Made by a program: the position numbers and the translations under genes | Part shown: piece after piece, positions 2,767-45,420 of the stretch | How the letters are laid out: every line of letters starts with the position of its first letter | Position numbering within the stretch: the first letter of the stretch is position 1 | From: an uncultured Mycoplasmatota bacterium | Lineage (GTDB): Bacteria; Bacillota_I; Bacilli_A; RF39; UBA660 | NCBI GenBank assembly: GCA_947296775.1 | Contig: CAMYRF010000001.1 | Span: 1-45,420, forward strand | Direction: 5' to 3' | Length of the DNA: 45,420 nt | Notes under the pieces: model-generated | What the model was told of the DNA's origin: nothing | Databases searched by the model: none | What the model saw: the letters and a program-made list of their open reading frames with translations, nothing else

Positions 2767-3756
2767 CTATCCAATATATTTTTTAGTTCCGTTAAATGCA
2801 CACACCCAGCCACTTGGTATACGCATCCAGATTTCATTGCCTATATTTTTTATTTCTTTACATGTTACTGTAACATTTTTGTTCAATTGTCCTTTGGCAT
2901 TGCAGTTTTTTTGTGCATTCGGAGTTAATTTAGAACGTGTTTTTTTAGTACAACTTGTACCAGCACCAGTTCTAATATTAAGTGCATCCACTAATGTTTT
3001 ATATTCATTTCCTACTATATAATTATTTTCTGTAATTCGTGTTAAATATTCCAGCGAACTCCATCCCTGATACTCCTTAACATATCCCCATCCATTATTT
3101 TCATTAATTACAGTGACCGTTTCTCCTTTTTGAATACGTTTTCCAGTATCATTACCATTTGGGTTGTCACGAACTCTTAATGTTGTTGCCTGAGTAGTTA
3201 CTTTGGCACGATATTCATTTTGTGTAGGTTGTATCACTGTTTCTTTAACTTCACCTATCAAACCTTTAACAATAGCATCTGACATTGTTTCACAATTATA
3301 AAGACCCACATCAATCTCACTGTCACAGAAACAACATTCAATTAAAATAGCTGGTGCTTTTGTTTTTTTAAGTACATATAAATCAGTTCTATCTTTTACT
3401 CCACGATTTTTAAATCCTAATTGAGCTATCGCATTACAAATATTTTGAGCTACTGTTTTAGTTTTATTTGAATACTGCAAAACTTCAACTCCATGACCCT
3501 GACCATTTGAAGCATTAAAATGAATACTTATATCTAAATCAACTGTATGATCATTGCATTTAGATACGATATTTTTAAGATTTTCATTTTGAGTCTTACC
3601 ACTGTCATCTGTACAATCATATACTGTATAACCTAGTGATTGTAATTTAGATATTACTGTATCTTTAACTTTTCTATCCTCTGTTACTTCGTTAAATTTA
3701 CCATTAGCTCCTGGAACAATAGTGTTATGTCCAGCGTGAATATTATAAATTCCCAT
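2767..3756 (-). CDS. Endolysin: N-acetylmuramoyl-L-alanine amidase (Amidase_3-like) with C-terminal SH3-like repeats
   Basis: N-terminus [11 protein letters not shown]...IHFNA...GVE is typical of the family. It sits next to the holin. Confidence 0.85.
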
Positions 3757-3757
3757 A

Positions 3758-3994
3758 TTATTTATCCTCCTTATCTTCTAAATCACTAATACGATGATTT
3801 GCCACTTTCATTTTTTCTTCTAATAAATATGTTCTCTCTACTACAGAATTATGTTTCTCAACTTTTTTATCAAGTTCATCTATTCTATATTGTAATAACG
3901 CATTAGCTTTATTGTTGCTCACCATAGTTGCTATAACTGAAGGTACTGCAACACACAACCCACTTACCAATGCAACTGCAATAGCTTCACTCAT
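3758..3994 (-). CDS. Lysis-associated membrane protein (XhlA/BhlA-like: N-terminal TM plus coiled coil)
   Basis: One N-terminal TM helix followed by a coiled coil. Located between holin and endolysin. Confidence 0.5.
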   Translation of the reverse strand: MSEAIAVALVSGLCVAVPSVIATMVSNNKANALLQYRIDELDKKVEKHNSVVERTYLLEEKMKVANHRISDLEDKEDK

Positions 3995-4003
3995 TTTTTT
4001 TAC

Positions 4004-4264
4004 CTACTTACCAGGTTCCTGATACTGCATTGCTCTAACTGAATCTGATACACCTTCTGTTGTAGGGTCGACTACAATTCCTAGAATCACTAGTAATGCA
4101 AATACTGAATTTACTACTATTAATAACTTATTGCCTAAATCTCCAAAATCTAATGTATAGCCAAACACTCCAGCTACTGCTTGTAAAACTAATAACACTG
4201 CTGGTATTAATGATAACCAAAATTGTCTGTTTGCAATTCTTACTTTCCAATTAATTTTATTCAT
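4004..4264 (-). CDS. Holin, phi LC3 / Phage_holin_1 family
   Basis: MNKINWKVRIANRQFW..., TM helices and DPTTEGVSDS match the family signature as I recall it. Confidence 0.85.
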   Translation of the reverse strand: MNKINWKVRIANRQFWLSLIPAVLLVLQAVAGVFGYTLDFGDLGNKLLIVVNSVFALLVILGIVVDPTTEGVSDSVRAMQYQEPGK

Positions 4265-4281
4265 ATTTTTTCCTTCTTTCT

Positions 4282-6066
4282 TTATCTAATATATCTGATA
4301 GTTATTCTGTATCGATTTAATGAAACCGTAGCTCCAGTACTAATACGAATCTCATCTTTGTATAAATCATAGTATACCTCTGCTTGTGCACTTGCTAGTG
4401 CTGTTCCATTACCAACATTTGGTACAGATGCACCAACACTTCGAGAATCGGTATAAATGAACATATATGTATTTTGCCAGTCTATCCATGCTTCCATTGG
4501 ATGCTCTACTCCTATCGGAATAGCTATACTACTTAATACCTTACCTCCACCATCCCCAAAAAACGTTTTTGTGTAAATAGGAGCTTTAAGTCCATCTAAT
4601 TTAAGGTAATCTCCAGTAAACTGTTCTTCCTCACTAAAAATAAACGCTTTACATTTAATATCAGCTCTTTCTCCACCAACTTGTAACACTCCACCAATTT
4701 TTTCATCATAAAATGCGCCAAATGCAACACCATTACGATGAATAGCCATATTAGGTATACCACTTGTTAAAATAGTTGTTTTTTCTGCATTTGCTAATTT
4801 ATCTGAAACAACCAGCTTAAAATCATAGTTATTTCCTACAGTGAATCCGTTAGCATCCAAATCACCTTTTATTTCCAAACTTCCATTAAATACATTAGAA
4901 GTTATTTTGGGGGTTATAGAAGTAGTTCCTTGTTTCCATGTTCCCATACCTTGTGCTTTATAAAAATACTGTACTTTTAAACTGTTGGTTAATTTTCCAA
5001 AATTTTCATCCCAAAAATTTCCTTCATATTTTAATGTAACATTAGAACCAATACCACCCTTTGCACGCTCTAAAGATAATGATGTAATTGCAGGTGGTGT
5101 ATACTGCCTATAATTGCTTATATTTAATATCTTTTCAACTGTATTTCCGCGTGAATCTTCTACATAAACTTTAATTATACTGTCATTTACATTCTCTAAA
5201 TTAAAATCACCATGAGTAGCACTTGTCTGAACTGTATTTCCACAGATAACCTTATACTGCTTAATCGTAGCTTCCTTTACTGGTGTAGCCTGAGGAACTG
5301 TAACAGTAATATTGCTATACCCCTTTATAACTGTTGAATTGCTAACTAAATCTAAATGATTTGTACTTTCCCATGTTGGAGTACCTACAGTCGGTATTGG
5401 GTCCTTGATAACAAAGGTTCTGTCATGATAGCTTGCCCATGTTGTCCCATTACTGTATAGTCCAACACGAATAGTACAGCTGTTGCCTTTACATGCCTGA
5501 CGCAACTGTTTACGCTCTGCTTCTGTTAAAGACCATGTATATCTTCCGCCAGTACCTCTAAAAGTACGCTCGCATAAATGCGGTCCACTTGGATTTGGCT
5601 CGAGCCATGCCCGCAATTCCCAGTTTGCTGGGTTAGTGTAATCAATCCATGGATTTTCTTCATCATTGAAACTTGCTGGTAAGTTAGTGATATTTGCTTG
5701 ACGAGGAATAGTCGGTAATGACCACGAACCGCTTGTATCTTCATTTACTGAACTTGTATATACCGCAGAGACAACATGTGCTCCAAATGAAGCGTTACCA
5801 TTAACATCATGCTGAATAGTTTTGTATCCGTTTGCCAGATCACCTTTGTACCTCTTGGTACGACTGTTACTGTTTACCAGAACTTCTCCAAATGCATCTG
5901 CATAGTCTCTATAATGATAATAATAAGAACTTGTTCCACCTACGACTGTAACACGCCAGTATATTGTAGATGTATTGCTTGCAATATTCTGACTTACCAG
6001 CGACCATGCAAACTCTAAATATCGTCCCTGATATCCGCCTCCACCTATTACTCCACTGTTAGCCAT
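4282..6066 (-). CDS. Tail / receptor-binding structural protein (DUF859-like N-terminus)
   Basis: 594 aa, overlaps the upstream tail-tip gene, lies in the distal tail module. Confidence 0.5.
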   Translation of the reverse strand: MANSGVIGGGGYQGRYLEFAWSLVSQNIASNTSTIYWRVTVVGGTSSYYYHYRDYADAFGEVLVNSNSRTKRYKGDLANGYKTIQHDVNGNASFGAHVVSAVYTSSVNEDTSGSWSLPTIPRQANITNLPASFNDEENPWIDYTNPANWELRAWLEPNPSGPHLCERTFRGTGGRYTWSLTEAERKQLRQACKGNSCTIRVGLYSNGTTWASYHDRTFVIKDPIPTVGTPTWESTNHLDLVSNSTVIKGYSNITVTVPQATPVKEATIKQYKVICGNTVQTSATHGDFNLENVNDSIIKVYVEDSRGNTVEKILNISNYRQYTPPAITSLSLERAKGGIGSNVTLKYEGNFWDENFGKLTNSLKVQYFYKAQGMGTWKQGTTSITPKITSNVFNGSLEIKGDLDANGFTVGNNYDFKLVVSDKLANAEKTTILTSGIPNMAIHRNGVAFGAFYDEKIGGVLQVGGERADIKCKAFIFSEEEQFTGDYLKLDGLKAPIYTKTFFGDGGGKVLSSIAIPIGVEHPMEAWIDWQNTYMFIYTDSRSVGASVPNVGNGTALASAQAEVYYDLYKDEIRISTGATVSLNRYRITIRYIR

Positions 6067-21143: not shown

Positions 21144-21830
21144 CTAAATCATTTTATGTGTGTTTTCAATACATAGTATTGTCTGCTCTATAAACAATTT
21201 GCCTTCATTGGTCCATTTTAACCAGTTGTGCTTTATTTTTACATAACCCCTATTTTTATATCTTCTATAAAGATGCCATCTTCCTTTACGAGAATACTGT
21301 ATCTTTTGGTTTTGTAAAACTTTATTTAATGCTTTAGCACTCATGTTATGCTCTTTGGCAATTTCCTCAGTAGACCATAAACGGTTTACTTTGTTTTCCT
21401 TGCATTCCAGTTTAAATTTAAGCTGGTTATTTTCTAAAATTAACTGCTGGTTATATTTAACTTCATCTACTAATCTTTCTAATGCTTCAAGATAATTATT
21501 AGGTAAAGCTGGTGTTTTTATTGCCTTTTCCATTTCCTCGAAACGATTAACGTATTGTGCAGTAAATATAATCCCCTTTTCACCAGTAAGTTTGTTAGCT
21601 ACCATTTCACAACCTTTCTTGGTTAAAAGATAGCATTTTAAAGTACGTCCAGTACTGTCCTCATACTCACTTGGTATGAAGAATTCTACTGAACGCAATT
21701 TTGCGTTGAGTAAAATACCCTCATACTTACGCACTTTTTTTAATAAATCACAATGTTTCATATCTATCATCCTAGCAACTTCTCTACTGTCGATCGTTTC
21801 AATATGATTAGCAATAATTAATTTACTCAT
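21144..21830 (-). CDS. Rha-family regulator fused to a KilAC antirepressor-type C-terminal domain
   Basis: IETIDSREVARMIDMKHCDLLKKVRKY is Rha-like. The C-terminus NNYLEALERL...SAKALNKVL...GYV is KilAC-like. Start reassigned to MSKLI. Confidence 0.65.
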   Translation of the reverse strand: MSKLIIANHIETIDSREVARMIDMKHCDLLKKVRKYEGILLNAKLRSVEFFIPSEYEDSTGRTLKCYLLTKKGCEMVANKLTGEKGIIFTAQYVNRFEEMEKAIKTPALPNNYLEALERLVDEVKYNQQLILENNQLKFKLECKENKVNRLWSTEEIAKEHNMSAKALNKVLQNQKIQYSRKGRWHLYRRYKNRGYVKIKHNWLKWTNEGKLFIEQTILCIENTHKMI

Positions 21831-21972
21831 GGCTACCACACTCCTTTTCACTATTACTATCAAAATCACGTACATAACGACATTGAGTATAATCAAAAAC
21901 CTTTTTTAAAGAAGTGTCACTCATTTCATTTAAAAGTTTATTTATATAAATTATATACTTTTCTCTATCCAT
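21823..21972 (-). CDS. 49-aa small protein (paralogue family with 21968-22093 and 41326-41445)
   Basis: Hand-translated: MDREKYIIYINKLLNEMSDTSLKKVFDYTQCRY... Start and stop overlaps with both neighbours. Confidence 0.4.
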   Translation of the reverse strand: MDREKYIIYINKLLNEMSDTSLKKVFDYTQCRYVRDFDSNSEKECGSHE

Positions 21973-22093
21973 GGCTAGCCACCTCATATGAACGATATTT
22001 TACTGCTTCTAAATATTTTACAACAAGCATTAAAGCTCTCTTGTCATTAATATCTTTTAAAATCGATGCGATATATTCTTTTTCTTCTTCCAT
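21968..22093 (-). CDS. 41-aa small protein
   Basis: AGAGGT RBS. Sequence MEEEKEYIASILKDINDKRALMLVVKYLEAVKY... Confidence 0.4.
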
Positions 22094-22215
22094 TTTTATT
22101 TACCTCTTTCGTTTAAAATTTAAGATAGAGGCTTATAAATTATTTATAATTATGCTATAATATATAAGCCTCGTAGTGGGCAATAGAACGTGAAACTTTC
22201 TCAGGGTAAAACGTT

Positions 22216-22392
22216 CTATTTTTTTATATCGTCTTTTAATTTTTTTATTCCTAATCGGATTGCTTCTGCTCTCGATACATTCTCTTGTTCGATGTATTTT
22301 TCCAATATCGATGAACACTCATTATCTAATCTAATATGAATAGGTTTTCCTTTAGGATTATTTGTAGGACGACCAATTTTTTTATCTGTCAT
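22216..22392 (-). CDS. Ribbon-helix-helix (CopG/Arc-like) DNA-binding protein, 58 aa
   Basis: AAAGGAGG RBS. MTDKKIGRPTNNPKGKPIHIRLDNECSSILEKYIEQENVSRAEAIRLGIKKL has the classic RHH pattern. Replaces track ORF 22133-22318. Confidence 0.7.
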   Translation of the reverse strand: MTDKKIGRPTNNPKGKPIHIRLDNECSSILEKYIEQENVSRAEAIRLGIKKLKDDIKK

Positions 22393-37593: not shown

Positions 37594-37733
37594 TTCTTAA
37601 TCTTCTCCCTTACATTCTTAATTTCTTCTTTTAATTCACTTGCCAAATCAAAATCAGCACTATCCCAGTGATCTTTCATTTCAAGTTCAAACAACTGCCG
37701 TTCTAATTGAAATAATTTTTCTTTTAATTTCAT
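37584..37733 (-). CDS. Small coiled-coil protein
   Basis: GGAGGA RBS before MKLKEKLF. Confidence 0.45.
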   Translation of the reverse strand: MKLKEKLFQLERQLFELEMKDHWDSADFDLASELKEEIKNVREKIKKWD

Positions 37734-37734
37734 T

Positions 37735-38220
37735 TTATTCCTCCAGTATAAATATTTCTTTGTATTTTCTATCAAATTTACTGTGGTCAGTTACATATAT
37801 ATCTATTATCTGTCCCTTAAATGAGCCAGTATCCTCAGCTATGTAAACATGGTTGTCAATCATAATTTTAGAACCCAGAGGGATATAATCAGTATCCACC
37901 CCTATGGTTCTGCCTTCTACATAATCTGTACCTAAACGTGTTAAATATCCCGTCCATTTACCGTTACACTCATAACAACTGCAGTAGTTAGTTATTTTAT
38001 AAATTCCTAACGATCTTCATTTTGGTAATGAATTCTGGTATTCTTCTGCAAGTAATTCATTTTTAGCTTTTAGGTCATTGATTACATTCTCCAATCTGGT
38101 TACTTCATTATTTAATTTTAAATTTTCATACTGTAATGACTGTCCGTAAACATAGCCAATCGACAACAAAAATAACAAAATACTAATTATTAATACTTTA
38201 AACTTCTTCAATATTTGCAT
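37735..38220 (-). pseudogene. 3D-domain (MltA/YuiC-like) cell-wall protein interrupted by one in-frame TGA at 38017-38019
   Basis: The N-terminal TM plus coiled coil (67 aa) and the C-terminal 3D domain (ITNYCSCYECNGKWTGYLTRLGT...IGVDTDYIPLGSKI...AEDTGSFKGQIIDIY) share a frame. The 3D part has no start codon of its own. Confidence 0.7.
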
Positions 38221-38254
38221 TCCCTCCGTTTATCCTCTATAATGAAGATGGTTT

Positions 38255-38524
38255 TTATTTGTTAGGTACTGTTGGCGCAGTGCCTTTTTGTTTTATAATA
38301 ATTTCTGCTAAAGCCTGAACAAGTTCTATTGATGGGCTTGGATTCCATTTAGTCATGTAATCCTCAAACGCTGTTCTAGGGATTACAATAGATCTATGAC
38401 CGTTTTTATTCTTGGTACAGCTTCCAGGAAATACACCCTGCTCCACCGCATTTCTTACCCAGGCTGGATCCTTTTTTAAACGTCTAGCACATTCCTCAAC
38501 ACTTATTGTCTCCATCTTTCTCAC
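38255..38524 (-). CDS. Excisionase-like / MerR-type HTH DNA-binding protein
   Basis: ISVEECARRLKKDPAWVRNAVEQGVFPG is an HTH_17-like motif. Confidence 0.55.
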   Translation of the reverse strand: MRKMETISVEECARRLKKDPAWVRNAVEQGVFPGSCTKNKNGHRSIVIPRTAFEDYMTKWNPSPSIELVQALAEIIIKQKGTAPTVPNK

Positions 38525-38527
38525 CTC

Positions 38528-39322
38528 CTAATTTAGTGATAAATTTTGTTCAATCATAGGCAAAATATCATTTGCTTTTAATAACTCATACAGAAATAAC
38601 CGCCCTTTTTGTGTCCATTTAGTATTCATTTTTACATCAGGCATACCATTACTTCGAGTAATATCAATAGTTTCAGACTGTGTATAACCTTTGTTTTGAT
38701 ATTTACTATATAAAAGCCACTGTCCTGACTGTTTGTATTGAATACCTAAATTATGTAGTATATTATTAAGTGCTTTCCCACTTTTACCATAATCCTTAGC
38801 AATTTGAGAGATAGTTACTAAACCTTTATTTTTTAAAATCAGATCACAGTAATCTGCTTTTGGTTTTAACTCAGCTATCTGTTGATCTTTTATTTTATTT
38901 GAAAGTTCTAATTTCTCATTTTCTTCAATTCGAGCTAACAATTGAAGAAGCGCTTCTTTGTAATTACTTGGTAAAGCACTCGGTTTAGCTTCTCTTGATT
39001 TAAAATAGTGTTCGACCAAACTATCATATACCTCCCATGCTTTATCAGTGTTTAAAGACTTAGCATGTAAGAACGCTCCACGTTCTGTCCATAAATAAAT
39101 TGTTTTAGCATTTTTTAAACCTCGGTCAAATTGTCCTTGGTCTATAAATTCTTTCTTTTCTACACCTTCCAAAGTAAAATAATGCTTTCCTTCTTGGTAT
39201 CTTTCTTTGTTTCTATTAAAATTTTTAGTTACAACATCTGTTGTTGTACCATAGCTTTCAGCTAACTGACTTGTTAATAACACCCTTTGATTTTCGTACT
39301 CGATAATCTGTAATTGATTCAT
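38528..39322 (-). CDS. Antirepressor: ORF6N N-terminal domain plus KilAC C-terminal domain
   Basis: NQRVLLTSQLAESYG...FNRNKERYQEGKHYF at the N-terminus; SNYKEALLQL...ISQIAKDYGKSGKALNNIL at the C-terminus. Confidence 0.7.
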   Translation of the reverse strand: MNQLQIIEYENQRVLLTSQLAESYGTTTDVVTKNFNRNKERYQEGKHYFTLEGVEKKEFIDQGQFDRGLKNAKTIYLWTERGAFLHAKSLNTDKAWEVYDSLVEHYFKSREAKPSALPSNYKEALLQLLARIEENEKLELSNKIKDQQIAELKPKADYCDLILKNKGLVTISQIAKDYGKSGKALNNILHNLGIQYKQSGQWLLYSKYQNKGYTQSETIDITRSNGMPDVKMNTKWTQKGRLFLYELLKANDILPMIEQNLSLN

Positions 39323-39383
39323 AAAATAATTTCCTTTCTTTTGTGTTATAATGAGATAAAGTAACAAGAAAGCAGGATCGACT

Positions 39384-39707
39384 ATGAAAAATCAATTTGA
39401 TGATGTGATTCTCATGAAAGAAGAATTACAACTTCTTAAGAAAATCCATAAAAATCCACATTTTAATATCAACGATATCTCATTTGATAAATATAGATTG
39501 TTTTTAAGTTATGGTTTTATAGAACGTGACTATAGCGGTAAAATAGACTATAGGGGTCAAAATATTTTTGATAATACTGTTTGTACTACTGCAAATTACA
39601 AACGATTTTTAAAAAATCGTAAAAATAATTTTATAGAAAGGAAATTTCCTATAATAATTTCTTGTATTGCATTAGTTATCTCAATAATCGCACTAATAAA
39701 GCAATAA
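39384..39707 (+). CDS. Opposite-strand moron with a soluble N-terminal domain and a C-terminal TM anchor
   Basis: 107 aa with the hydrophobic C-terminus FPIIISCIALVISIIALI. A hairpin lies downstream. Confidence 0.55.
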   Translation: MKNQFDDVILMKEELQLLKKIHKNPHFNINDISFDKYRLFLSYGFIERDYSGKIDYRGQNIFDNTVCTTANYKRFLKNRKNNFIERKFPIIISCIALVISIIALIKQ

Positions 39708-39778
39708 TTGATATTACCAGGCTTGTTAATGAAACAATCAGCGGTGTCCAGTTTCGTTTCATATTTTTTATTCCTTTC

Positions 39779-40483
39779 TTAAAATTTAAAATCTTGTTGT
39801 TCATACCCTAAGACACCAATAATAGTCGCTCTTGATGGTTGCCAATCATTGATAAAATCTAAAATTTTGTAATAATCTTTCTTTAAAATTTGATTCCTAT
39901 GTTTTACACCACCGACAAGTAATACTTCATGATTAAATTCATTAAATAATTTTCTGCGCTGATTACCACGCACAATTAATCCTTCGTCTTTGATAACATT
40001 GTTAATACGTTTTTGTATTCTAGTACCAATCTCTGAATATTCATTTTGAGAAATCGTTTGTACCGATTCTAATTGAGTTACACGAGCTTCAATTTGTTCT
40101 GTTGCTTCAAACATTAGCCTTAATGCTTGCATTGGATCATGCTGAATAGAATATGTACCAGTTCTCCTCAATGTTGGTAATACTTCTGAGGTAACCCATC
40201 TTTTAAATTTTTTAGCCGTTGGTAATTTGCTTGATAACACTAGACTATACAATCCACTTTCATTAATAATGATTACATTTTGTTTTCCTCCTGGTGTCAC
40301 CATTTCAGTGACCCCTTTATCTTCTTCGTCAACATGTCTAGCTATCGCATTATTCAACGACTTGCCTTCACCATATCCCAACGCTCTTGCTACATCCTTT
40401 CCGACAAACCATGGGTCACTGTCAACGCTCAAACTTCTAACTTCTCCAAATTCTTCATTTTTGAAAATTTTTAACTCATTCAT
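39779..40483 (-). CDS. BRO-N domain antirepressor-like protein
   Basis: FGEVRSLSVDSDPWFVGKDVARALGY...INESGLYSLVLSSKLPTAKKFKRWVTSEVLP. Confidence 0.8.
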   Translation of the reverse strand: MNELKIFKNEEFGEVRSLSVDSDPWFVGKDVARALGYGEGKSLNNAIARHVDEEDKGVTEMVTPGGKQNVIIINESGLYSLVLSSKLPTAKKFKRWVTSEVLPTLRRTGTYSIQHDPMQALRLMFEATEQIEARVTQLESVQTISQNEYSEIGTRIQKRINNVIKDEGLIVRGNQRRKLFNEFNHEVLLVGGVKHRNQILKKDYYKILDFINDWQPSRATIIGVLGYEQQDFKF

Positions 40484-40506
40484 GTAATGTACTCCTTTCA
40501 TTCTTT

Positions 40507-40716
40507 TTAAGAAATCACTTTTTTAAGATCACCATTTTTAAAATTATAATCTTTCGGATTATTTTCTTTTTCAACCTGGTTCGTAGACATATGCAAACCT
40601 CTTATAAGCCAGGTTAAGCGATCTGAAGCTTGAGGGTCTCTTTCTTTAATTTCAACAAGCATAGTTACCACCTCAATAATATCTTGTTGAGTATCTAAAA
40701 ATTTTTCTGGTCCCAT
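40507..40716 (-). CDS. First early gene (in the Cro position), function unknown
   Basis: AAGGAAGTG RBS; start reassigned to the ATG (MGPEKF). Confidence 0.5.
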   Translation of the reverse strand: MGPEKFLDTQQDIIEVVTMLVEIKERDPQASDRLTWLIRGLHMSTNQVEKENNPKDYNFKNGDLKKVIS

Positions 40717-40748
40717 ACAATTCACTTCCTTTCTTGAGTTAATCCCTC

Positions 40749-40797
40749 AAACCTATATATCAGATTGGGGGAAGAGATAAAACTGATATATAGGTTT
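40749..40797 (-). promoter_or_regulatory. 15-bp perfect inverted repeat (19-nt loop) in the early-operon leader
   Basis: AAACCTATATATCAG ... CTGATATATAGGTTT. Confidence 0.5.
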
Positions 40798-40839
40798 CAA
40801 AAATTAAATTTTTGTTGTGTTTTCAAACTTTATAACCAC

Positions 40840-40868
40840 ATTATAGTTGCGTTTTAAACCTTTGTCAA
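40840..40868 (-). promoter_or_regulatory. Early (lytic) promoter with perfect consensus
   Basis: Minus strand TTGACA-17 nt-TATAAT. Confidence 0.7.
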
Positions 40869-40878
40869 TATAAAGTTG

Positions 40879-40907
40879 TTGCATTTTCAAACTTTTAGTT
40901 ATATACT
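40879..40907 (+). promoter_or_regulatory. Repressor promoter, back-to-back with the early promoter
   Basis: TTGCAT-17 nt-TATACT. A TTTTCAAACTT repeat lies in the spacer and recurs at 40820. Confidence 0.55.
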
Positions 40908-40929
40908 TTATTTAAGAAAGGAGAGAAAA

Positions 40930-41316
40930 ATGAATACAATAGAAAATAGAATAAAATTACTTAGAAAAACACTTGGTCTAAGTATGGAAAAATTTGGAGA
41001 AAAAATCGGATTAAGTAAAACTACTATTTCTAGAGTAGAAAGTGGCGATAGTCCTTTAACACAAAAAAATATTAAATTAATTTGTTCTATTTATAATGTT
41101 GACTATTTTTGGTTAACCGAAGGCACTGGTGAAATGTTTCTTGAATTTCCAGATGTAGCAATTGATATGATTGTCGAAGATTACAAGTTAGATGAAATTG
41201 ATCGTCTTTTGGTTCAAACGTATATTGAAACAAATGATGAAGATCGAAAAGTTATTAAGAATTTTTTACAAACATTTGCAAAAAAAATTGAACAAAAAAA
41301 AGACGAGAAAACTTAA
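40930..41316 (+). CDS. CI-like XRE-family repressor
   Basis: LGLSMEKFGEKIGLSKTTISRVESG is an HTH motif. Transcribed divergently from the early operon. Confidence 0.8.
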   Translation: MNTIENRIKLLRKTLGLSMEKFGEKIGLSKTTISRVESGDSPLTQKNIKLICSIYNVDYFWLTEGTGEMFLEFPDVAIDMIVEDYKLDEIDRLLVQTYIETNDEDRKVIKNFLQTFAKKIEQKKDEKT

Positions 41317-41328
41317 TCTCGTCTTTTA
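41301..41328 (+). terminator. Intrinsic terminator after the repressor gene
   Basis: AGACGAG-loop-CTCGTCT followed by TTTT. Confidence 0.6.
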
Positions 41329-41445
41329 GTCATAATGACTATTATAATACTTAATCACATAACAATACATCCTTTTAATATCATTAAGCGTCATTACCTT
41401 TAACATCATAAAAATCTTTCTTAAATATGCTTTTTTCTCATTCAT
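41326..41445 (-). CDS. 39-aa small protein downstream of the LytTR regulator
   Basis: AGAGGGGAAGG RBS. Sequence MNEKKAYLRKIFMMLKVMTLNDIKRMYCYVIKYYNSHYD. Confidence 0.4.
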   Translation of the reverse strand: MNEKKAYLRKIFMMLKVMTLNDIKRMYCYVIKYYNSHYD

Positions 41446-41558
41446 AATTCCTTCCCCTCTTAGTATATTTGTCCTTATATTTATTCTAGCAGTATAAATA
41501 TAAAATTTAAATATATGTGGGATACTTTTGATTTTTCTGGGGTACTTTTTTACAATTT

Positions 41559-42245
41559 CTATGATTTTCGCCATCTATACTGTTTGTAAGCCTCTAAAAC
41601 ATCTCTGTATCGTGCTGGACTAACAGAAATTTTTACATTATCATTCAGTATAACATAGTCTTTGTTAATAGCAGTTATATACGCAACATTAATAACATAC
41701 GACACATGGCATCTTATAAAATCATATTCCTTTAATGTTTTTTCTATTGCAGATATTTTTGCTCTTTGCTTTATTTTTCTGTTGTTATCTAAAGTGTAAT
41801 AAACATAATTAGACTTAGATTCAACGAATATAATCTGTGATACCTTAATTGTATCATCATTGACTTCAATTTTAGCATTTTTCCTTCTGTTCTTGTAATT
41901 TATTATATTCATACATTCTTTTAAATCCGTTACCAGTTTTTCTTTTCTTATAAAATACAAGGGCATTGCTACAAAAGAATAATGCACATAATTCTCATGT
42001 GAAGATACAAAAATAATATCAGGAGCATTACCACGCTGATTATAACGATAGTATTCAACTGCAAGATCAATACCATTTTCACTCCCAAGTTCGATATCTA
42101 AAAAAAGAGTTTTAATGCTATTATTTGCTAAAAAAACAGTGTCAAAATTTGTTAATATCTTTATTTCTTTTTCAATATAATATTTTTCTAATTCTTTTTT
42201 TAAAATTTCTGCAAAATCATAATCATCATCGATTATTACTATCAT
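41559..42245 (-). CDS. AgrA-like response regulator (receiver domain plus LytTR DNA-binding domain), orphan
   Basis: IIDDD, FLDIELGSENGIDL and IIFVSSH...YFIRK parallel the AgrA receiver. The C-terminus (FVES...FIRCHVSYVINV) is LytTR-like. Confidence 0.8.
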   Translation of the reverse strand: MIVIIDDDYDFAEILKKELEKYYIEKEIKILTNFDTVFLANNSIKTLFLDIELGSENGIDLAVEYYRYNQRGNAPDIIFVSSHENYVHYSFVAMPLYFIRKEKLVTDLKECMNIINYKNRRKNAKIEVNDDTIKVSQIIFVESKSNYVYYTLDNNRKIKQRAKISAIEKTLKEYDFIRCHVSYVINVAYITAINKDYVILNDNVKISVSPARYRDVLEAYKQYRWRKS

Positions 42246-42532
42246 AAATTTCCTCCTATAAGATTATTATGTGCTCTCGCACACTTTAATAATCCTTTTC
42301 TATCACCTCCTTTATTTTTATTTTGTTTATTTGCATTTTATGTTAATATGAAAACAAGCACAACACATTACATAGTTGTATTCTAATAGTAAAAAAATAA
42401 CAAATTGTAAATTTAAGATTTTAACAAACAATCGCAAAAAAAAGCACCTAAATTCTGGTGCTAATGTTTAACAATTTTTGGGACATTTTCAAATTCGCTT
42501 GACAGCAATTAAAGAAAGGACGTGATTTTATT

Positions 42533-43639
42533 ATGGCTAGAAAGCAGACTTTTAAGCGCAGACCAAACAAAGCGGGAACAGTAGTAAAATTATCAGGGAA
42601 GCGAAGAAAGCCTTACTGTGCAAAAATAACTGCTGGTAGAGACCAGATTACAGGCAGACAGATACAAAAATCTATTGGAACATATGAAACTTGGGAAGAA
42701 GCTGATGATGCTTTAACTTTATACCGATTAAATAAAAGAAAAATGATCAGTGATCAAGAGGCTATGTCTCTAGCCCCTGCAACATTTAATAAATTAGTAG
42801 AGCAGAGGAATAAAAGCATACCAACTTTTAAGGAAATTTATGACCTGGTATACGAAGAAGATTTATGTAAATTAGCCACTAATACAACAAAAGGATACAT
42901 TAACGCAGTAAAACATTTTAAGTCGATCTATAACATAAAAATAAACAATATAAGCCTAGCAATGCTTCAGGATCTTTTTGACAACGACAGCACGGGTCAT
43001 GGCATGAAATCATTAATGAAAATTTTATGTGCTAAAATTTTTAAATATGCAGTAATTCATAAATATATAAACCGTGATGATAACTACGTTGAATATATCA
43101 GATTAGGTGAATACAAAGAAAGTACATTACACTATGCTTTTACAAGTAAAGAAATAAAAACATTGATTAATGATGGCTCGCTCGATGCTAAAATAGTTTT
43201 AATTTATATTTTTACAGGCGTTCGAGCAAATGAACTTCTTAATCTGCCAAAAGAAAATATTACCATAAGTGAGATTTCTTATTTTGTTACAGGAATTAAA
43301 ACAACAGCTGGTAAAAATCGTATTGTCCCTATCCATGATTTTATAAAACCTTTTATTATAGAACTGATGGATGCAAGCAAAAAAGAAACGATAATAAATT
43401 ACAGCTATGACAATTTTAGAAGACGCCATTTTTCTGAATTGATGAAAAAATTAAATATGAAACACACATTGCATGATACTAGAGATACTTTTGCTACTCT
43501 CTGCCAAGAGAACAATATCGATATATTTATTAGAAAAAGAATTTTAGGACACAAGATGCGGGACATAACATTTGATACATATACTACAACTGTAATTGAA
43601 ACGTTATGCAAAGAGGTTAATAAGATTAAAATCCCATAG
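42533..43639 (+). CDS. int: Tyrosine integrase
   Basis: HDTRDTFATL, LGH and a C-terminal Tyr region; 368 aa. Confidence 0.9.
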   Translation: MARKQTFKRRPNKAGTVVKLSGKRRKPYCAKITAGRDQITGRQIQKSIGTYETWEEADDALTLYRLNKRKMISDQEAMSLAPATFNKLVEQRNKSIPTFKEIYDLVYEEDLCKLATNTTKGYINAVKHFKSIYNIKINNISLAMLQDLFDNDSTGHGMKSLMKILCAKIFKYAVIHKYINRDDNYVEYIRLGEYKESTLHYAFTSKEIKTLINDGSLDAKIVLIYIFTGVRANELLNLPKENITISEISYFVTGIKTTAGKNRIVPIHDFIKPFIIELMDASKKETIINYSYDNFRRRHFSELMKKLNMKHTLHDTRDTFATLCQENNIDIFIRKRILGHKMRDITFDTYTTTVIETLCKEVNKIKIP

Positions 43640-43850
43640 TTTTTTGTTACTTATTTGTTACTTATTAGGCACATTTCGTCACTTTTCATCGCCCAAGCAC
43701 CTTAAAAATACGTTATTTAGTATATTTTAAATATTATCTACAATAATATTTTTTTAGCGTATACCAACGTTTTTGAGATATTTGTTACTTATTTGTTATT
43801 TACAGAGTACATTTTATCACATTTTTTTATCACAAAAGCACCCAAGTTTA
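43640..43850. other. attP-like region with arm-type direct repeats
   Basis: TTGTTACTTATTTGTTA(C/T)TTA occurs at 43644 and 43782. Each occurrence is a tandem of an 11-mer. Confidence 0.5.
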
Positions 43851-43866
43851 TCGGGTGCTTTCTTTT
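43834..43866. terminator. Bidirectional hairpin terminator
   Basis: AAAGCACCC-loop-GGGTGCTTT. Confidence 0.6.
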
Positions 43867-43991
43867 ATTATCTTCTTTAATTTATCCCTAATTTCATGCA
43901 GTTCATCAACTGTCTTTTCAATATCCCTATCAGCTTTTAGCTCCTCTACAGTTTCGTTTAGCTTTTTACTTATTTCCCTTAACTCCTCCAT
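43848..43991 (-). CDS. 47-aa coiled-coil protein downstream of the Abi gene
   Basis: GGAGGGAAG RBS. Sequence MEELREISKKLNETVEELK... Confidence 0.45.
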   Translation of the reverse strand: MEELREISKKLNETVEELKADRDIEKTVDELHEIRDKLKKIIKESTR

Positions 43992-44150
43992 TTTTCTTCC
44001 CTCCTGAATATAATTATATAGACAAATTATAAAGTATTCTGCCATATTTTTGTAGACTGATAAGGACTGTAAAGCAGATTTAAAGGATAAAAAAACAGAT
44101 ACTGCAGAATTTAAAAGGATATTAAAAAATTTATACTAGGATTTAAATAT

Positions 44151-45110
44151 TTATTGAGGTAACTTCTGGACAAGATACCAATTATTTGGAAACCCTAGTG
44201 AAGACAATATATCATTACAACTAATTGTATTTAACCCTTTTTTTAGTACCCAAGCTCTTTTTCTTATTGTGTTATATATTTGTCCATATTGATTTTTAGA
44301 AAGAAAACACTGTAAAACCAAAAATACATTATACACATCTTGACGAGGAGAATTTTTATCAATATCATACTTACTATGTAATTCATCATTATATACTGTA
44401 TTTTGCCTGCACTTGAAACTTAAAACTCTATTATTATGGGCAACAATATTTCTCAACTCAACAATATTATTTAAATAAGATATTAACTGTTTAGGTTGTA
44501 ATAAGCATTTTTTTAATTCTAAATTTTCTATTAAAAATACACTAAAATCTTTTGCTATACGATTTTGAATAGACGGCTTTAGATATGTATAAAATTTAAC
44601 CACTTCACCAAAGCACATATAATTAATAACCACCCAAAATGGTACCTTTCCATAATTTATAAGATAATGTTTAATAGCATTGTTGTCGTTTTTTTTATTA
44701 TACCTATTTATAATATTGCTCATTTTAGATATAAGGCTAGTAACTTTTAACATATTATCTGAATTGTAATTTGTCGCAACCAAATAAGCATAATCATCTA
44801 ACTTATATTCTTCAGAAAATCTATAGGCTATAATAGATTTTAAATGCTTTTCAGCTTCAATTATTGCTTTAAATAATGCACTTTTTAATTCCTTATCAAA
44901 AAAATGAACATTAGTAATTTCATCAAAATTTGTACCTTTAATATATTCATCATCATGATCAATAAAAAATTTACCATAACAATTAATAACATTATAGTAA
45001 TTATTATTTAAAAGATATAACTTAGCTTTTTTAACATCAGTAAACTGTACTCCTCTATTTTGTAGTAATTCTAATTGCTCATCTATAGTTTTAAATGGTT
45101 TAGATTTCAT
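44151..45110 (-). CDS. Abi_2 (AbiD/AbiF-like) HEPN-domain abortive-infection protein
   Basis: N-terminus KPFKTIDEQLELLQNRG, followed by ELRNIVAHNN (R-x4-H HEPN motif). AAGGAG RBS. Confidence 0.75.
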   Translation of the reverse strand: MKSKPFKTIDEQLELLQNRGVQFTDVKKAKLYLLNNNYYNVINCYGKFFIDHDDEYIKGTNFDEITNVHFFDKELKSALFKAIIEAEKHLKSIIAYRFSEEYKLDDYAYLVATNYNSDNMLKVTSLISKMSNIINRYNKKNDNNAIKHYLINYGKVPFWVVINYMCFGEVVKFYTYLKPSIQNRIAKDFSVFLIENLELKKCLLQPKQLISYLNNIVELRNIVAHNNRVLSFKCRQNTVYNDELHSKYDIDKNSPRQDVYNVFLVLQCFLSKNQYGQIYNTIRKRAWVLKKGLNTISCNDILSSLGFPNNWYLVQKLPQ

Positions 45111-45131
45111 TTTATACTCCTTATTAAATTA

Positions 45132-45203
45132 AACAAAAACCTTCTCACAGAATGAGAAGGCTTTGCGCAAATAGGCTCCGTAGAGTATCTATCGCTACAT
45201 CGT
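45132..45203 (-). ncRNA. Roughly 70-nt sRNA unit, gene-proximal copy, ending in an intrinsic terminator
   Basis: Lies downstream of TTGACA-17-TAGAAT. Contains GUAG/CUAC and the palindrome TTTGCGCAAA. Ends with CCTTCTCA-TTCTG-TGAGAAGG-TTTTTGTT, 21 nt before the abi ATG. Confidence 0.6.
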
Positions 45204-45209
45204 ATAATC

Positions 45210-45238
45210 ATTCTATAATTATTTTTCTGTTTTGTCAA
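45210..45238 (-). promoter_or_regulatory. Near-consensus promoter of sRNA copy 1
   Basis: Minus strand TTGACA-17 nt-TAGAAT. Confidence 0.6.
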
Positions 45239-45248
45239 TAACATTAAT

Positions 45249-45320
45249 AACAAAAACCTTCTCACAGAATGAGAAGGCTTTGCGCAAATAGGCTCCGTAG
45301 AGTATCTATCGCTACATCGT
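45249..45320 (-). ncRNA. Second identical sRNA unit
   Basis: 100% identical to 45132-45203. Confidence 0.6.
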
Positions 45321-45326
45321 ATAATC

Positions 45327-45355
45327 ATTCTATAATTATTTTTCTGTTTTGTCAA
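45327..45355 (-). promoter_or_regulatory. Promoter of sRNA copy 2
   Basis: Identical TTGACA-17 nt-TAGAAT. Confidence 0.6.
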
Positions 45356-45420
45356 TAACATTAATAACAAAAACCTTCTCACAGAATGAGAAGGCTTTGC
45401 GCAAATAGGCTCCGTAGAGT

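Follow-up and report, generated by a model that had tools for sequence, protein, structure and literature searches.

The stretch of DNA analysed here, referred to as the window, has a length of 45,420 nucleotides (nt) and forms the entire contig C1 (CAMYRF010000001.1) of a binned genome of 193 contigs and 1.13 Mb. The first 55 nt of the contig are identical to the last 55 nt (1-55 and 45366-45420), indicating a circular assembly and a phage genome of ~45.3 kb. The window is a circularly assembled temperate phage genome and not an integrated prophage with host flanks. Matches to PHROG and Pfam models identify a siphovirus-like temperate phage with nearly all genes on the minus strand, encoding a portal protein, large terminase, tail proteins, an endolysin, a primase, a helicase, several Ant/BRO-type proteins, a tyrosine integrase and an Abi_2 protein. 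The assignment of this circular contig to the 1.13-Mb metagenome-assembled genome is uncertain. In the lysogeny region the leftward early genes are followed by the switch region, an XRE-type repressor gene (plus strand), a small open reading frame (smORF, minus strand), a response regulator (RR) gene (minus strand) and the integrase gene (plus strand). The RR, and its connection to the smORF and the repressor, is the subject of this analysis. The features of the locus are:

41559..42245, minus strand: RR gene, 228 amino acids (aa), with a receiver domain (residues 1-122), a LytTR DNA-binding domain (125-207) and a C-terminal helix
41538..41549, minus strand: direct repeat 1, AAAAGTACCCCA, a predicted LytTR half-site; its CCCC is predicted to pair with the smORF Shine-Dalgarno (SD) sequence in read-through RNA
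41518..41529, minus strand: direct repeat 2, AAAAGTATCCCA, starting 20 nt past repeat 1 and ending 29 nt upstream of the -10 hexamer
41483..41511, minus strand: predicted smORF promoter with a weak -35 (TTTAAA), a 17-nt spacer and an extended -10 (TGcTAGAAT), of the activator-dependent type
41450..41459, minus strand: SD of the smORF, GAGGGGAAGG, 4 nt before the ATG
41326..41445, minus strand: smORF, 39 aa, predicted two-helix hairpin, member of the immunity cassette and candidate antirepressor
41298..41327, bidirectional: intrinsic terminator where the smORF and repressor genes converge, overlapping the repressor 3' end
40930..41316, plus strand: XRE-type repressor gene, 128 aa, HTH_3 plus a short helical tail, without an S24 peptidase domain
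42533..43639, plus strand: tyrosine integrase gene, divergent from the RR gene

In a mechanically generated list of open reading frames (ORFs) the 39-aa smORF is extended to 82 aa.

A preliminary description of this DNA, made by eye from the sequence, had named the 228-aa ORF an AgrA-like receiver plus LytTR regulator and an orphan within the lysogeny module. Profile and structure comparisons bear this out. The LytTR domain was recognized by Pfam (PF04397, 5.7e-16, 59 bits versus a cut-off of 22.6), and the single sequence scored 25.5 bits for Response_reg (PF00072), below the cut-off of 30.2. NCBIfam gave weak matches only, to LytR and BtsR, and PHROG 8810, annotated as 'unknown function', covers the RR over its full length (7e-28). 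A large protein search yielded 41 relatives, and all those with a named source are from Thomasclavelia. Alignment of 24 of these 41 relatives showed that D6, D7, D50 and K101 are invariant and that S81, F98 and R100 are conserved in at least 90 % of the sequences. A profile built from this alignment matched the Staphylococcus aureus LytR receiver (6m8o; 2.1e-16, residues 3-121), as well as the LytTR domains of 3d6w and AgrA. The AlphaFold2 model of the RR (mean predicted local distance difference test score (pLDDT) 90, predicted template modelling score 0.72) shows a LytTR beta-fold C-terminal to a canonical (beta-alpha)5 receiver. In Foldseek the top full-length match was ComE (4cbv, 2.4e-12), the LytR receiver was matched with a template modelling (TM) score of 0.82 and the AgrA LytTR domain (4g4k) with a TM score of 0.76 and a root-mean-square deviation of 2.3; the nearest solved structures share 15-25 % identity with the RR. 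Every sequence motif quoted in the preliminary description is present. The RR is a bona fide AgrA/LytR/ComE-type regulator. Its receiver looks competent for phosphorylation: the phospho-acceptor pocket is intact, with D50 invariant in a canonical receiver fold, and conservation of the acidic pocket, the Ser and the Lys argues for phosphorylation of the protein.

The genomic contexts of seven protein clusters were fetched, and genomes, viral contigs and metagenomes were scanned. Thirteen distinct loci were compared; these are not all independent and represent about eight RR clades. All 13, counting the window, belong to temperate phages of the gut bacterium Thomasclavelia and share one gene order: int, one or two variable genes, the RR gene, a smORF of 37-74 aa, a convergent XRE repressor gene, and cro-like plus early genes. 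The full order of elements is RR, repeats, extended -10, SD, smORF and terminator, facing the repressor gene with cro beyond it. The RRs of these loci share 39-100 % identity; their integrases are of the tyrosine or serine type and the host insertion sites differ. The conservation of its position and fixed wiring points to a role of the RR in control of the lysis-lysogeny switch. The interpretation given in the preliminary description thus stands as far as gene identity, location in the lysogeny module and, judged by position and wiring, involvement in the switch are concerned, and is probably wrong where it extends to host genes (see below).

Between the RR stop codon and the smORF start codon lies a pair of direct repeats of 11-12 nt, with a period of 20 nt wherever the pair is clear. 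It could be read in 13 of 13 loci, in about half by an automated scan and by eye in the rest: in six loci the scan chose other repeats and the pair was read from the spacers. The end of repeat 2 was found 28-31 nt from the -10 hexamer in 7 of the 13 loci by the automated scan. Downstream of the repeats are a poor -35, an extended -10 of the form TGnTAnAAT, a leader of 23-71 nt, a G-rich SD and the ATG. An independent consensus scan of the window returned the same promoter (TTTAAA-17-TAGAAT with the upstream TG) and two terminators, one right behind the smORF and one upstream of the RR unit. LytTR activators such as AgrA and ComE characteristically act from pairs of direct repeats that are spaced by about two turns of the helix and lie immediately 5' of a weak -35. 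The repeat sequence differs by RR clade (GTAYCCCA, GYGYCCC, CYGCCCC, TTCTCCCA, TTTATCCC and TTTTCCCA), and in recombinant loci it always goes with the RR.

The exact repeat pair of the window is unique in the 45-kb phage; at up to three mismatches two places were found (0.31 expected by chance), the second of which has three mismatches and lies inside a tail gene. No further exact pair was found in the binned genome, and the repeat pair of a relative has no second copy in the 3-Mb genome of T. cocleata DSM 1551. The simplest reading is that the RR has one dedicated target, the smORF promoter, and the 39-aa smORF, mentioned in the preliminary description as a side remark, appears to be this target. 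Control of host genes by the RR, which had been proposed as one outcome, is unlikely because the predicted site pair is unique in the phage, the binned genome and the T. cocleata genome. Two further arrangements were considered and rejected. In the loci checked, no copy of the clade-specific repeat motif lies upstream of the RR gene, which argues against autoregulation, and an operator-like sequence, TTTTCAAACTT, occurs exactly only at 40820 and 40884, which argues against the repressor acting on the RR or smORF promoters. In some loci the spacer holds additional repeats: five tandem copies, or an inverted pair, of AATGTGAATAAC are present between the RR stop codon and the repeat pair (L016/L017 5691-5760, L025 4700-4735 and the L213 spacer). 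In L016/L017 and L213 the RR gene is directly preceded by an additional small HTH_3 gene. The AATGTGAATAAC copies may be sites for a second regulator.

Comparison of the loci showed that RR, smORF and repressor are exchanged as modules. Three pairs of loci carry the same RR with unrelated smORFs and repressors: window/L008 (identity of RR 94 %, smORF 28 %, repressor 22 %), L016/L017 (100, 35 and 35 %) and L020/L021 (100, 35 and 36 %). The reciprocal pairs L016/L021 (41, 69 and 80 %) and L017/L020 (41, 58 and 51 %) show the opposite pattern. Values for L008/L012 are 57, 47 and 49 %, and further module combinations were found in L131 and L133/L134. At the DNA level the breakpoint between the window and L008 lies 15 nt into the smORF. 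The L016/L017 breakpoint is at the smORF start codon, where identity falls from 98-100 % to 55-70 %, and that of L020/L021 is directly after repeat 2. In the latter two pairs similarity returns only past the repressor-cro region; for the window and L008 no downstream similarity was seen within the 5 kb compared. Since the breakpoints fall between repeat 2 and the first smORF codons, the repeats appear to be part of the RR module and the smORF part of an exchangeable immunity cassette comprising smORF, repressor, operators and cro.

Several relatives depart from this layout. Clade P0038 (L026, L102, L217) resides in another element without an XRE gene. At L026, L102 and L217-L219 (T. cocleata DSM 1551 and relatives), outside the int-repressor context, the repeats TCTTCCC/TTTTCCC with a period of 20 and the extended -10 are kept, and the promoter leads to a 19-aa hydrophobic ORF, MNIFTLLNKETFLYLVLFLIS, which is not a smORF-family protein. 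In L104 (IMG/VR uncultivated virus genome (UViG) 3300028797_000239, 3363-5683) a rightward XRE repressor gene is followed by a leftward 45-aa ORF with the smORF two-helix motif, a divergent, rightward RR gene and a rightward integrase gene. The L104 RR is only 24 % identical; the RR-smORF-XRE trio may thus not be confined to Thomasclavelia and may also come in a divergent layout. In L012-L015 (2009-4939) the trio is found in an apparent prophage remnant, near a second LytTR regulator (193 aa), a holin, an Amidase_2/ZoocinA_TRD lysin and another ZoocinA_TRD protein, a neighbourhood that may represent a regulated lysis or bacteriocin cassette. Outside Thomasclavelia the nearest relative is L027 (4001-4676) of Clostridiales bacterium VE202-01, with 33 % identity; it is split into frames of 55 and 174 aa and is probably a frameshifted pseudogene. 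A tblastn search against 50,697 records of known phages gave matches of at most 31 % identity only. Among these, a Ruminococcus phage was rejected as a carrier of the same module: a 430-aa gene lies directly 3' of its RR.

The smORFs have strong SDs and are under purifying selection, with ratios of non-synonymous to synonymous substitution rates (dN/dS) of 0.22-0.39. The smORF protein of the window was modelled as a two-helix hairpin with a pLDDT of 91. Of the functions considered for these small proteins, that of an antirepressor is favoured. A secreted peptide of the AgrD or AimP type was rejected in view of the charged N-termini, the absence of a signal peptide by eye, of AgrB on the phage and of an AgrD core/tail pattern, and the two-helix model; an AgrD-like thiolactone core with an acidic tail was looked for by eye in the 39-aa ORF and not seen. 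A role as excisionase was rejected as well: the smORF lacks a winged helix-turn-helix, and an HTH_17-like ORF, recognized by eye, is located elsewhere in the early region (38255..38524); relatives carry PF12728 genes. PADLOC gave no match for the RR or the smORFs as parts of a defence system. Mimicry of the repressor, as in SinI, was rejected on the basis of an hhalign probability of 1.7 % and of local scores for cognate pairs not above those for non-cognate pairs. In several loci smORF and repressor end in identical residues (KKVD, QKADED, NKIN), because the palindromic bidirectional terminator is located inside both coding 3' ends. In L017, L018, L020 and L213 the terminator stem lies within both convergent genes, giving near-identical ends (LTKKVD, QKADED) that are mistakable for homology.

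The phage contig encodes no S24 peptidase domain and no ImmA/M78 protease, and no Cheo/LexA box (GAAC-N4-GTTC, at most one mismatch) was found in 37704-45420. Neither of the standard Firmicutes routes of repressor inactivation is therefore visible, and an SOS link was rejected on the same grounds. The RR-smORF pair is located where immA usually lies in modules of the ICEBs1 type and of phages. With moderate confidence, the locus is interpreted as a phage signal-input module for the lysis-lysogeny switch, in which the RR would activate a cassette-specific small antirepressor in a phosphorylation-gated manner. The kinase-less RR would receive its phosphate from a histidine kinase of the host or from a small phosphodonor, e.g. 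acetyl phosphate. The active RR would bind the repeat pair and turn on the promoter with its weak -35 and extended -10. The sole gene of the resulting transcription unit would be that of the 39-aa two-helix protein, with the bidirectional terminator abutting the end of the repressor gene. The small protein would then inactivate the XRE repressor of its own cassette, a protein that lacks both a self-cleavage domain and an ImmA partner, resulting in prophage induction without DNA damage. Domain identity, locus architecture and co-inheritance are read directly from the loci; from these we infer binding to the repeats, promoter activation, the need for phosphorylation and the antirepressor activity.

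A number of observations weigh against this interpretation. No match of the smORFs to a known antirepressor family or to a Pfam, PHROG or PADLOC model was found (ten smORFs gave nothing significant in Pfam or PHROG), and alignment of the smORFs with the repressor C-termini gave the low hhalign probability mentioned above. The three Ant-type proteins of the phage could also serve in induction, and sequence alone does not tell whether the module would induce the prophage or stabilise lysogeny. The repeat period of 20 bp is 1-2 bp short of the 21-22 bp known for AgrA and ComE sites. With no terminator between the RR gene and the smORF, the two may be co-transcribed to some extent. In a Mantel test smORF and repressor identities were modestly correlated (rho 0.23, p 0.025; RR versus smORF, rho -0.13), a weak signal because most pairs are at noise level. 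Furthermore, the smORF lies 0-50 nt from the repressor gene and linkage alone favours co-inheritance; the cassette argument therefore rests on the recurrent breakpoints on the RR side of the smORF.

The source of the signal was sought on the phage and in the host. Profile searches for HATPase_c, HATPase_c_5 and AgrB gave zero matches on the phage contig, and matches to AgrB and HATPase_c_5 were confined to contig C29 and other host contigs. No kinase adjoins the RR in integrated relatives, where the genes past int are host housekeeping genes (tRNA methyltransferase, ComG/T2SS, cotJ, esterase and rubrerythrin), in agreement with the orphan status described earlier. In the scanned genomes, viral contigs and metagenomes no kinase-adjacent relative of the RR was found above ~33 % identity; relatives below this value are ordinary regulators, many of them kinase-adjacent. 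The genome of T. cocleata DSM 1551 harbours 14 LytTR genes versus about four strong AgrC-type kinase matches (seven at or above the cut-off), three of which adjoin a LytTR gene, so most LytTR regulators of this strain are orphans. A host histidine kinase, with AgrC-type kinases among the candidates, or acetyl phosphate would most likely be needed as phosphodonor. The mean pairwise identity of the receiver exceeds that of the LytTR domain (56 % versus 43 %), and the receiver is the more conserved of the two in 85 % of the pairs, which fits a shared input with diversified outputs.

The preliminary description had gone further and connected the RR to host quorum sensing. In its strong form this reading holds that the RR taps a host agr-type kinase and so ties lysogeny or host expression to cell density; we consider it unlikely, and the link to host agr quorum sensing hypothetical. 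The binned host does have an agr-like locus on contig C29 (L129, 3439-6277) with an AgrA-like regulator, a 435-aa AgrC-type kinase and a divergent AgrB-like gene (6.7e-32). The surplus of LytTR orphans over AgrC-type kinases in T. cocleata DSM 1551 and the conservation of the receiver across phage clades, which would fit one common input, also agree with it, and phage phiCDHM1 is a precedent for agrB, agrC and agrD without agrA (PMC3901668). However, the phage RR is only 26 % identical to the AgrA-like protein of the binned host, no close non-phage relative was found beside a kinase, and acetyl phosphate or any other kinase fits equally well. In addition, the lack of a second copy of the repeat pair in host DNA argues against a host regulon, and membership of the circular phage contig in the binned genome is itself uncertain.

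Three further explanations were considered. With rather low probability, the RR activates the smORF and the small protein acts in favour of lysogeny, whether as co-repressor, as anti-Cro protein, as helper of superinfection immunity or by biasing the decision upon infection. The architecture and the co-inheritance within the cassette would fit any cassette-specific partner, including Cro or the operators. A repressor without S24 domain and without ImmA, however, needs a dedicated route of inactivation, and the characterised transcription factor (TF)-smORF modules and small repressor-linked proteins of the same layout are all antirepressors. A very improbable explanation is that the protein is irrelevant and that the RR-dependent promoter fires into the repressor gene, lowering repressor levels by transcriptional interference or antisense RNA: the convergent orientation is kept in 13 of 13 loci, but a strong bidirectional terminator separates smORF and repressor in every locus and the smORFs retain strong SDs, the two-helix core and the substitution ratios given above. 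There is equally little probability that the RR gene is an ordinary moron, captured from a host without a role in the switch or decaying, as might be suggested by the Response_reg score below the Pfam cut-off and the 'unknown function' of PHROG 8810, since clades sharing 41-57 % identity with the window RR all retain its catalytic residues, its dN/dS is 0.09-0.28 and its position and wiring are fixed across prophages with differing integrases and attachment sites.

The proposed signal-input module may include an additional layer of control at the RNA level. Folding of the read-through RNA placed the smORF SD in a pairing with the C-rich tract of a repeat, or with bases directly adjoining it, in 12 of 13 loci. 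On average the SD was paired with a probability of 0.90 in read-through RNA, compared with 0.10 in RNA initiated at the predicted regulator-dependent start and 0.53 once the upstream part had been shuffled; Wilcoxon p values for these contrasts were about 2e-4 and 5e-4, with the loci not all independent (~eight RR clades). L213 is the only locus in which the repeats lack a CCC tract, and a GGGG SD is lacking there too. These folds suggest that the repeats may double as anti-SD elements which silence read-through transcripts, in the window (41450-41549, minus strand) and in the 12 related loci. Combining the above, it can be tentatively proposed that in Thomasclavelia prophages the kinase-less RR could be a phospho-sensor of host physiology, which would be a new kind of sensory input to prophage induction, with a private promoter for a cassette-specific antirepressor, responding to a shared host signal through DNA-binding domains and repeat sites that are diversified per co-resident prophage, with the C-rich repeats acting as anti-SD; we consider this broader picture possible and clearly less secure than the signal-input module as such.

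The RR gene is preceded by a leader of its own, for which the following features were recognized:

42246..42442, minus strand: RR leader and putative own promoter, with SD TAGGAGGA
42443..42462, minus strand: terminator-like hairpin upstream of the RR unit, which would insulate it from transcription from the int/attP side

A hairpin with a GNRA loop (TGTGC-GAGA-GCACA; 42270-42283, minus strand) is located ~20 nt upstream of the RR start and was also found in L008, L210, L018 and L020/L021. Both this hairpin and the leader element GCGAGAGCACA are kept in RR clades whose proteins share only 47 % identity. The GNRA-loop hairpin could be an operator or an mRNA element. Different leaders are present in L012, L022, L016/L017 and L213, where ACTTATTATCCCA, resembling a repeat half-site, lies 60-130 nt upstream of the RR start and precedes a terminator-like hairpin and a T-run that directly adjoin the ribosome-binding site. 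This type of leader may be an attenuator. An Rfam search of 40500-43900, leaders included, gave zero matches.

Two other small ORFs of the phage genome resemble the smORF:

21965..22093, minus strand: 42-aa smORF-family paralogue with a two-helix core, upstream of a Rha/KilAC antirepressor-like gene
21823..21972, minus strand: 49-aa second smORF-family paralogue

The preliminary description had grouped the 39-aa ORF with ORFs at 21823-22093 in a small family of paralogues. An alignment (A2) showed a two-helix core common to the three proteins, and the 42-aa ORF matched the smORF of a relative with a pairwise E value of 3e-6; the sequences are short, and paralogy is plausible. Both paralogues belong to a small operon (21823-22392, minus strand) just before terL, in which a 58-aa ribbon-helix-helix/CopG-like gene comes first, the 42- and 49-aa genes follow and the Rha/KilAC antirepressor-like gene is last. 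No LytTR repeat pair is present upstream of the 42- and 49-aa paralogues. At the right end of the contig (45132-45420), upstream of the Abi_2 gene, 2.5 copies of identical 117-bp tandem units were observed.

Most gut bacteria are lysogens, and natural triggers of non-SOS induction in gut Firmicutes are largely unknown. If the interpretation as a signal-input module is true, host phosphorylation signals, not DNA damage, could set the timing of prophage induction. A prophage could then directly read host two-component or acetyl-phosphate signalling, in a circuit that is testable and for which the natural module swaps provide ready-made specificity controls. It would extend the induction logic of TF-smORF modules from plasmid-phages of Vibrio to integrating phages of Gram-positive bacteria. 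The predicted single-target regulator with its short site could also serve as a compact orthogonal switch.

Several known systems show partial resemblance to the module. The AgrA/LytR/ComE family shares with the phage RR the two-domain architecture, the fold and the D-D-D-S/T-K receiver pocket; the predicted target of the phage RR, paired direct repeats spaced by roughly two turns of the helix ahead of a promoter with a weak -35, resembles the sites of this family. The phage RR differs in the lack of a cognate kinase on the phage, its position in a lysogeny module, a predicted regulon of one tiny gene, the absence of a site upstream of its own gene and the repeat period of 20 bp versus 21-22 bp. 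Of the agr quorum-sensing locus, agrB, agrD and agrC are not encoded with the phage regulator. SinI of Bacillus subtilis shares the oligomerisation helices of SinR; the SinI-SinR pair is like the present one in that a small helical protein is encoded beside an XRE-type repressor that it could antagonise, and unlike it in that the smORFs have no homology to the repressor (hhalign 1.7 %). Gifsy prophages reportedly encode LexA-controlled small antirepressors that inactivate an uncleavable repressor. These Gifsy units likewise consist of a self-contained promoter, a small ORF and a terminator; theirs are derepressed through LexA, whereas here no Cheo/LexA box is present and positive control via the RR is predicted. 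Arbitrium (AimR-AimP-AimX) relies on a TPR receptor and a secreted pro-peptide, in contrast to the receiver-LytTR factor found here with smORFs that lack a signal peptide by eye and form a predicted two-helix hairpin.

Phage phiCDHM1 of Clostridium difficile, with an agr3 locus comprising agrB, agrD and agrC and no regulator (Hargreaves et al. 2014, PMC3901668), likewise carries part of an agr-type chain, although the complementary part: the phage of the window has only the regulator. The closest parallel in logic is provided by phage TFs that activate neighbouring smORFs, the products of which inactivate the cognate cI non-proteolytically and cause SOS-independent induction (Silpe et al. 2022/2023, doi 10.1101/2022.09.16.508337). 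The factors described there are one-component regulators (XRE-like, LuxR, VqmA), and the text contains no response regulator, LytTR or kinase. As in these modules, including VqmA(Phage)-Qtip of vibriophage VP882, a TF gene adjoins a small ORF near the repressor gene in the 13 loci. The known modules reside between repA and telN, or beside partition genes, in linear plasmid-like phages that infect Gram-negative bacteria, whereas the present module belongs to an integrating siphovirus-like phage of a Gram-positive gut bacterium and lies between int and the repressor gene. It is further distinguished by a phospho-receiver input, by co-oriented RR and smORF genes with the smORF convergent with the repressor, and by the lack of sequence similarity. 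No publication was found that describes the RR-repeats-smORF unit. New here is a conserved, modular unit of RR, repeat site and smORF attached to the immunity cassette of Thomasclavelia prophages, the logic of which is known from TF-smORF modules while its class of input differs.

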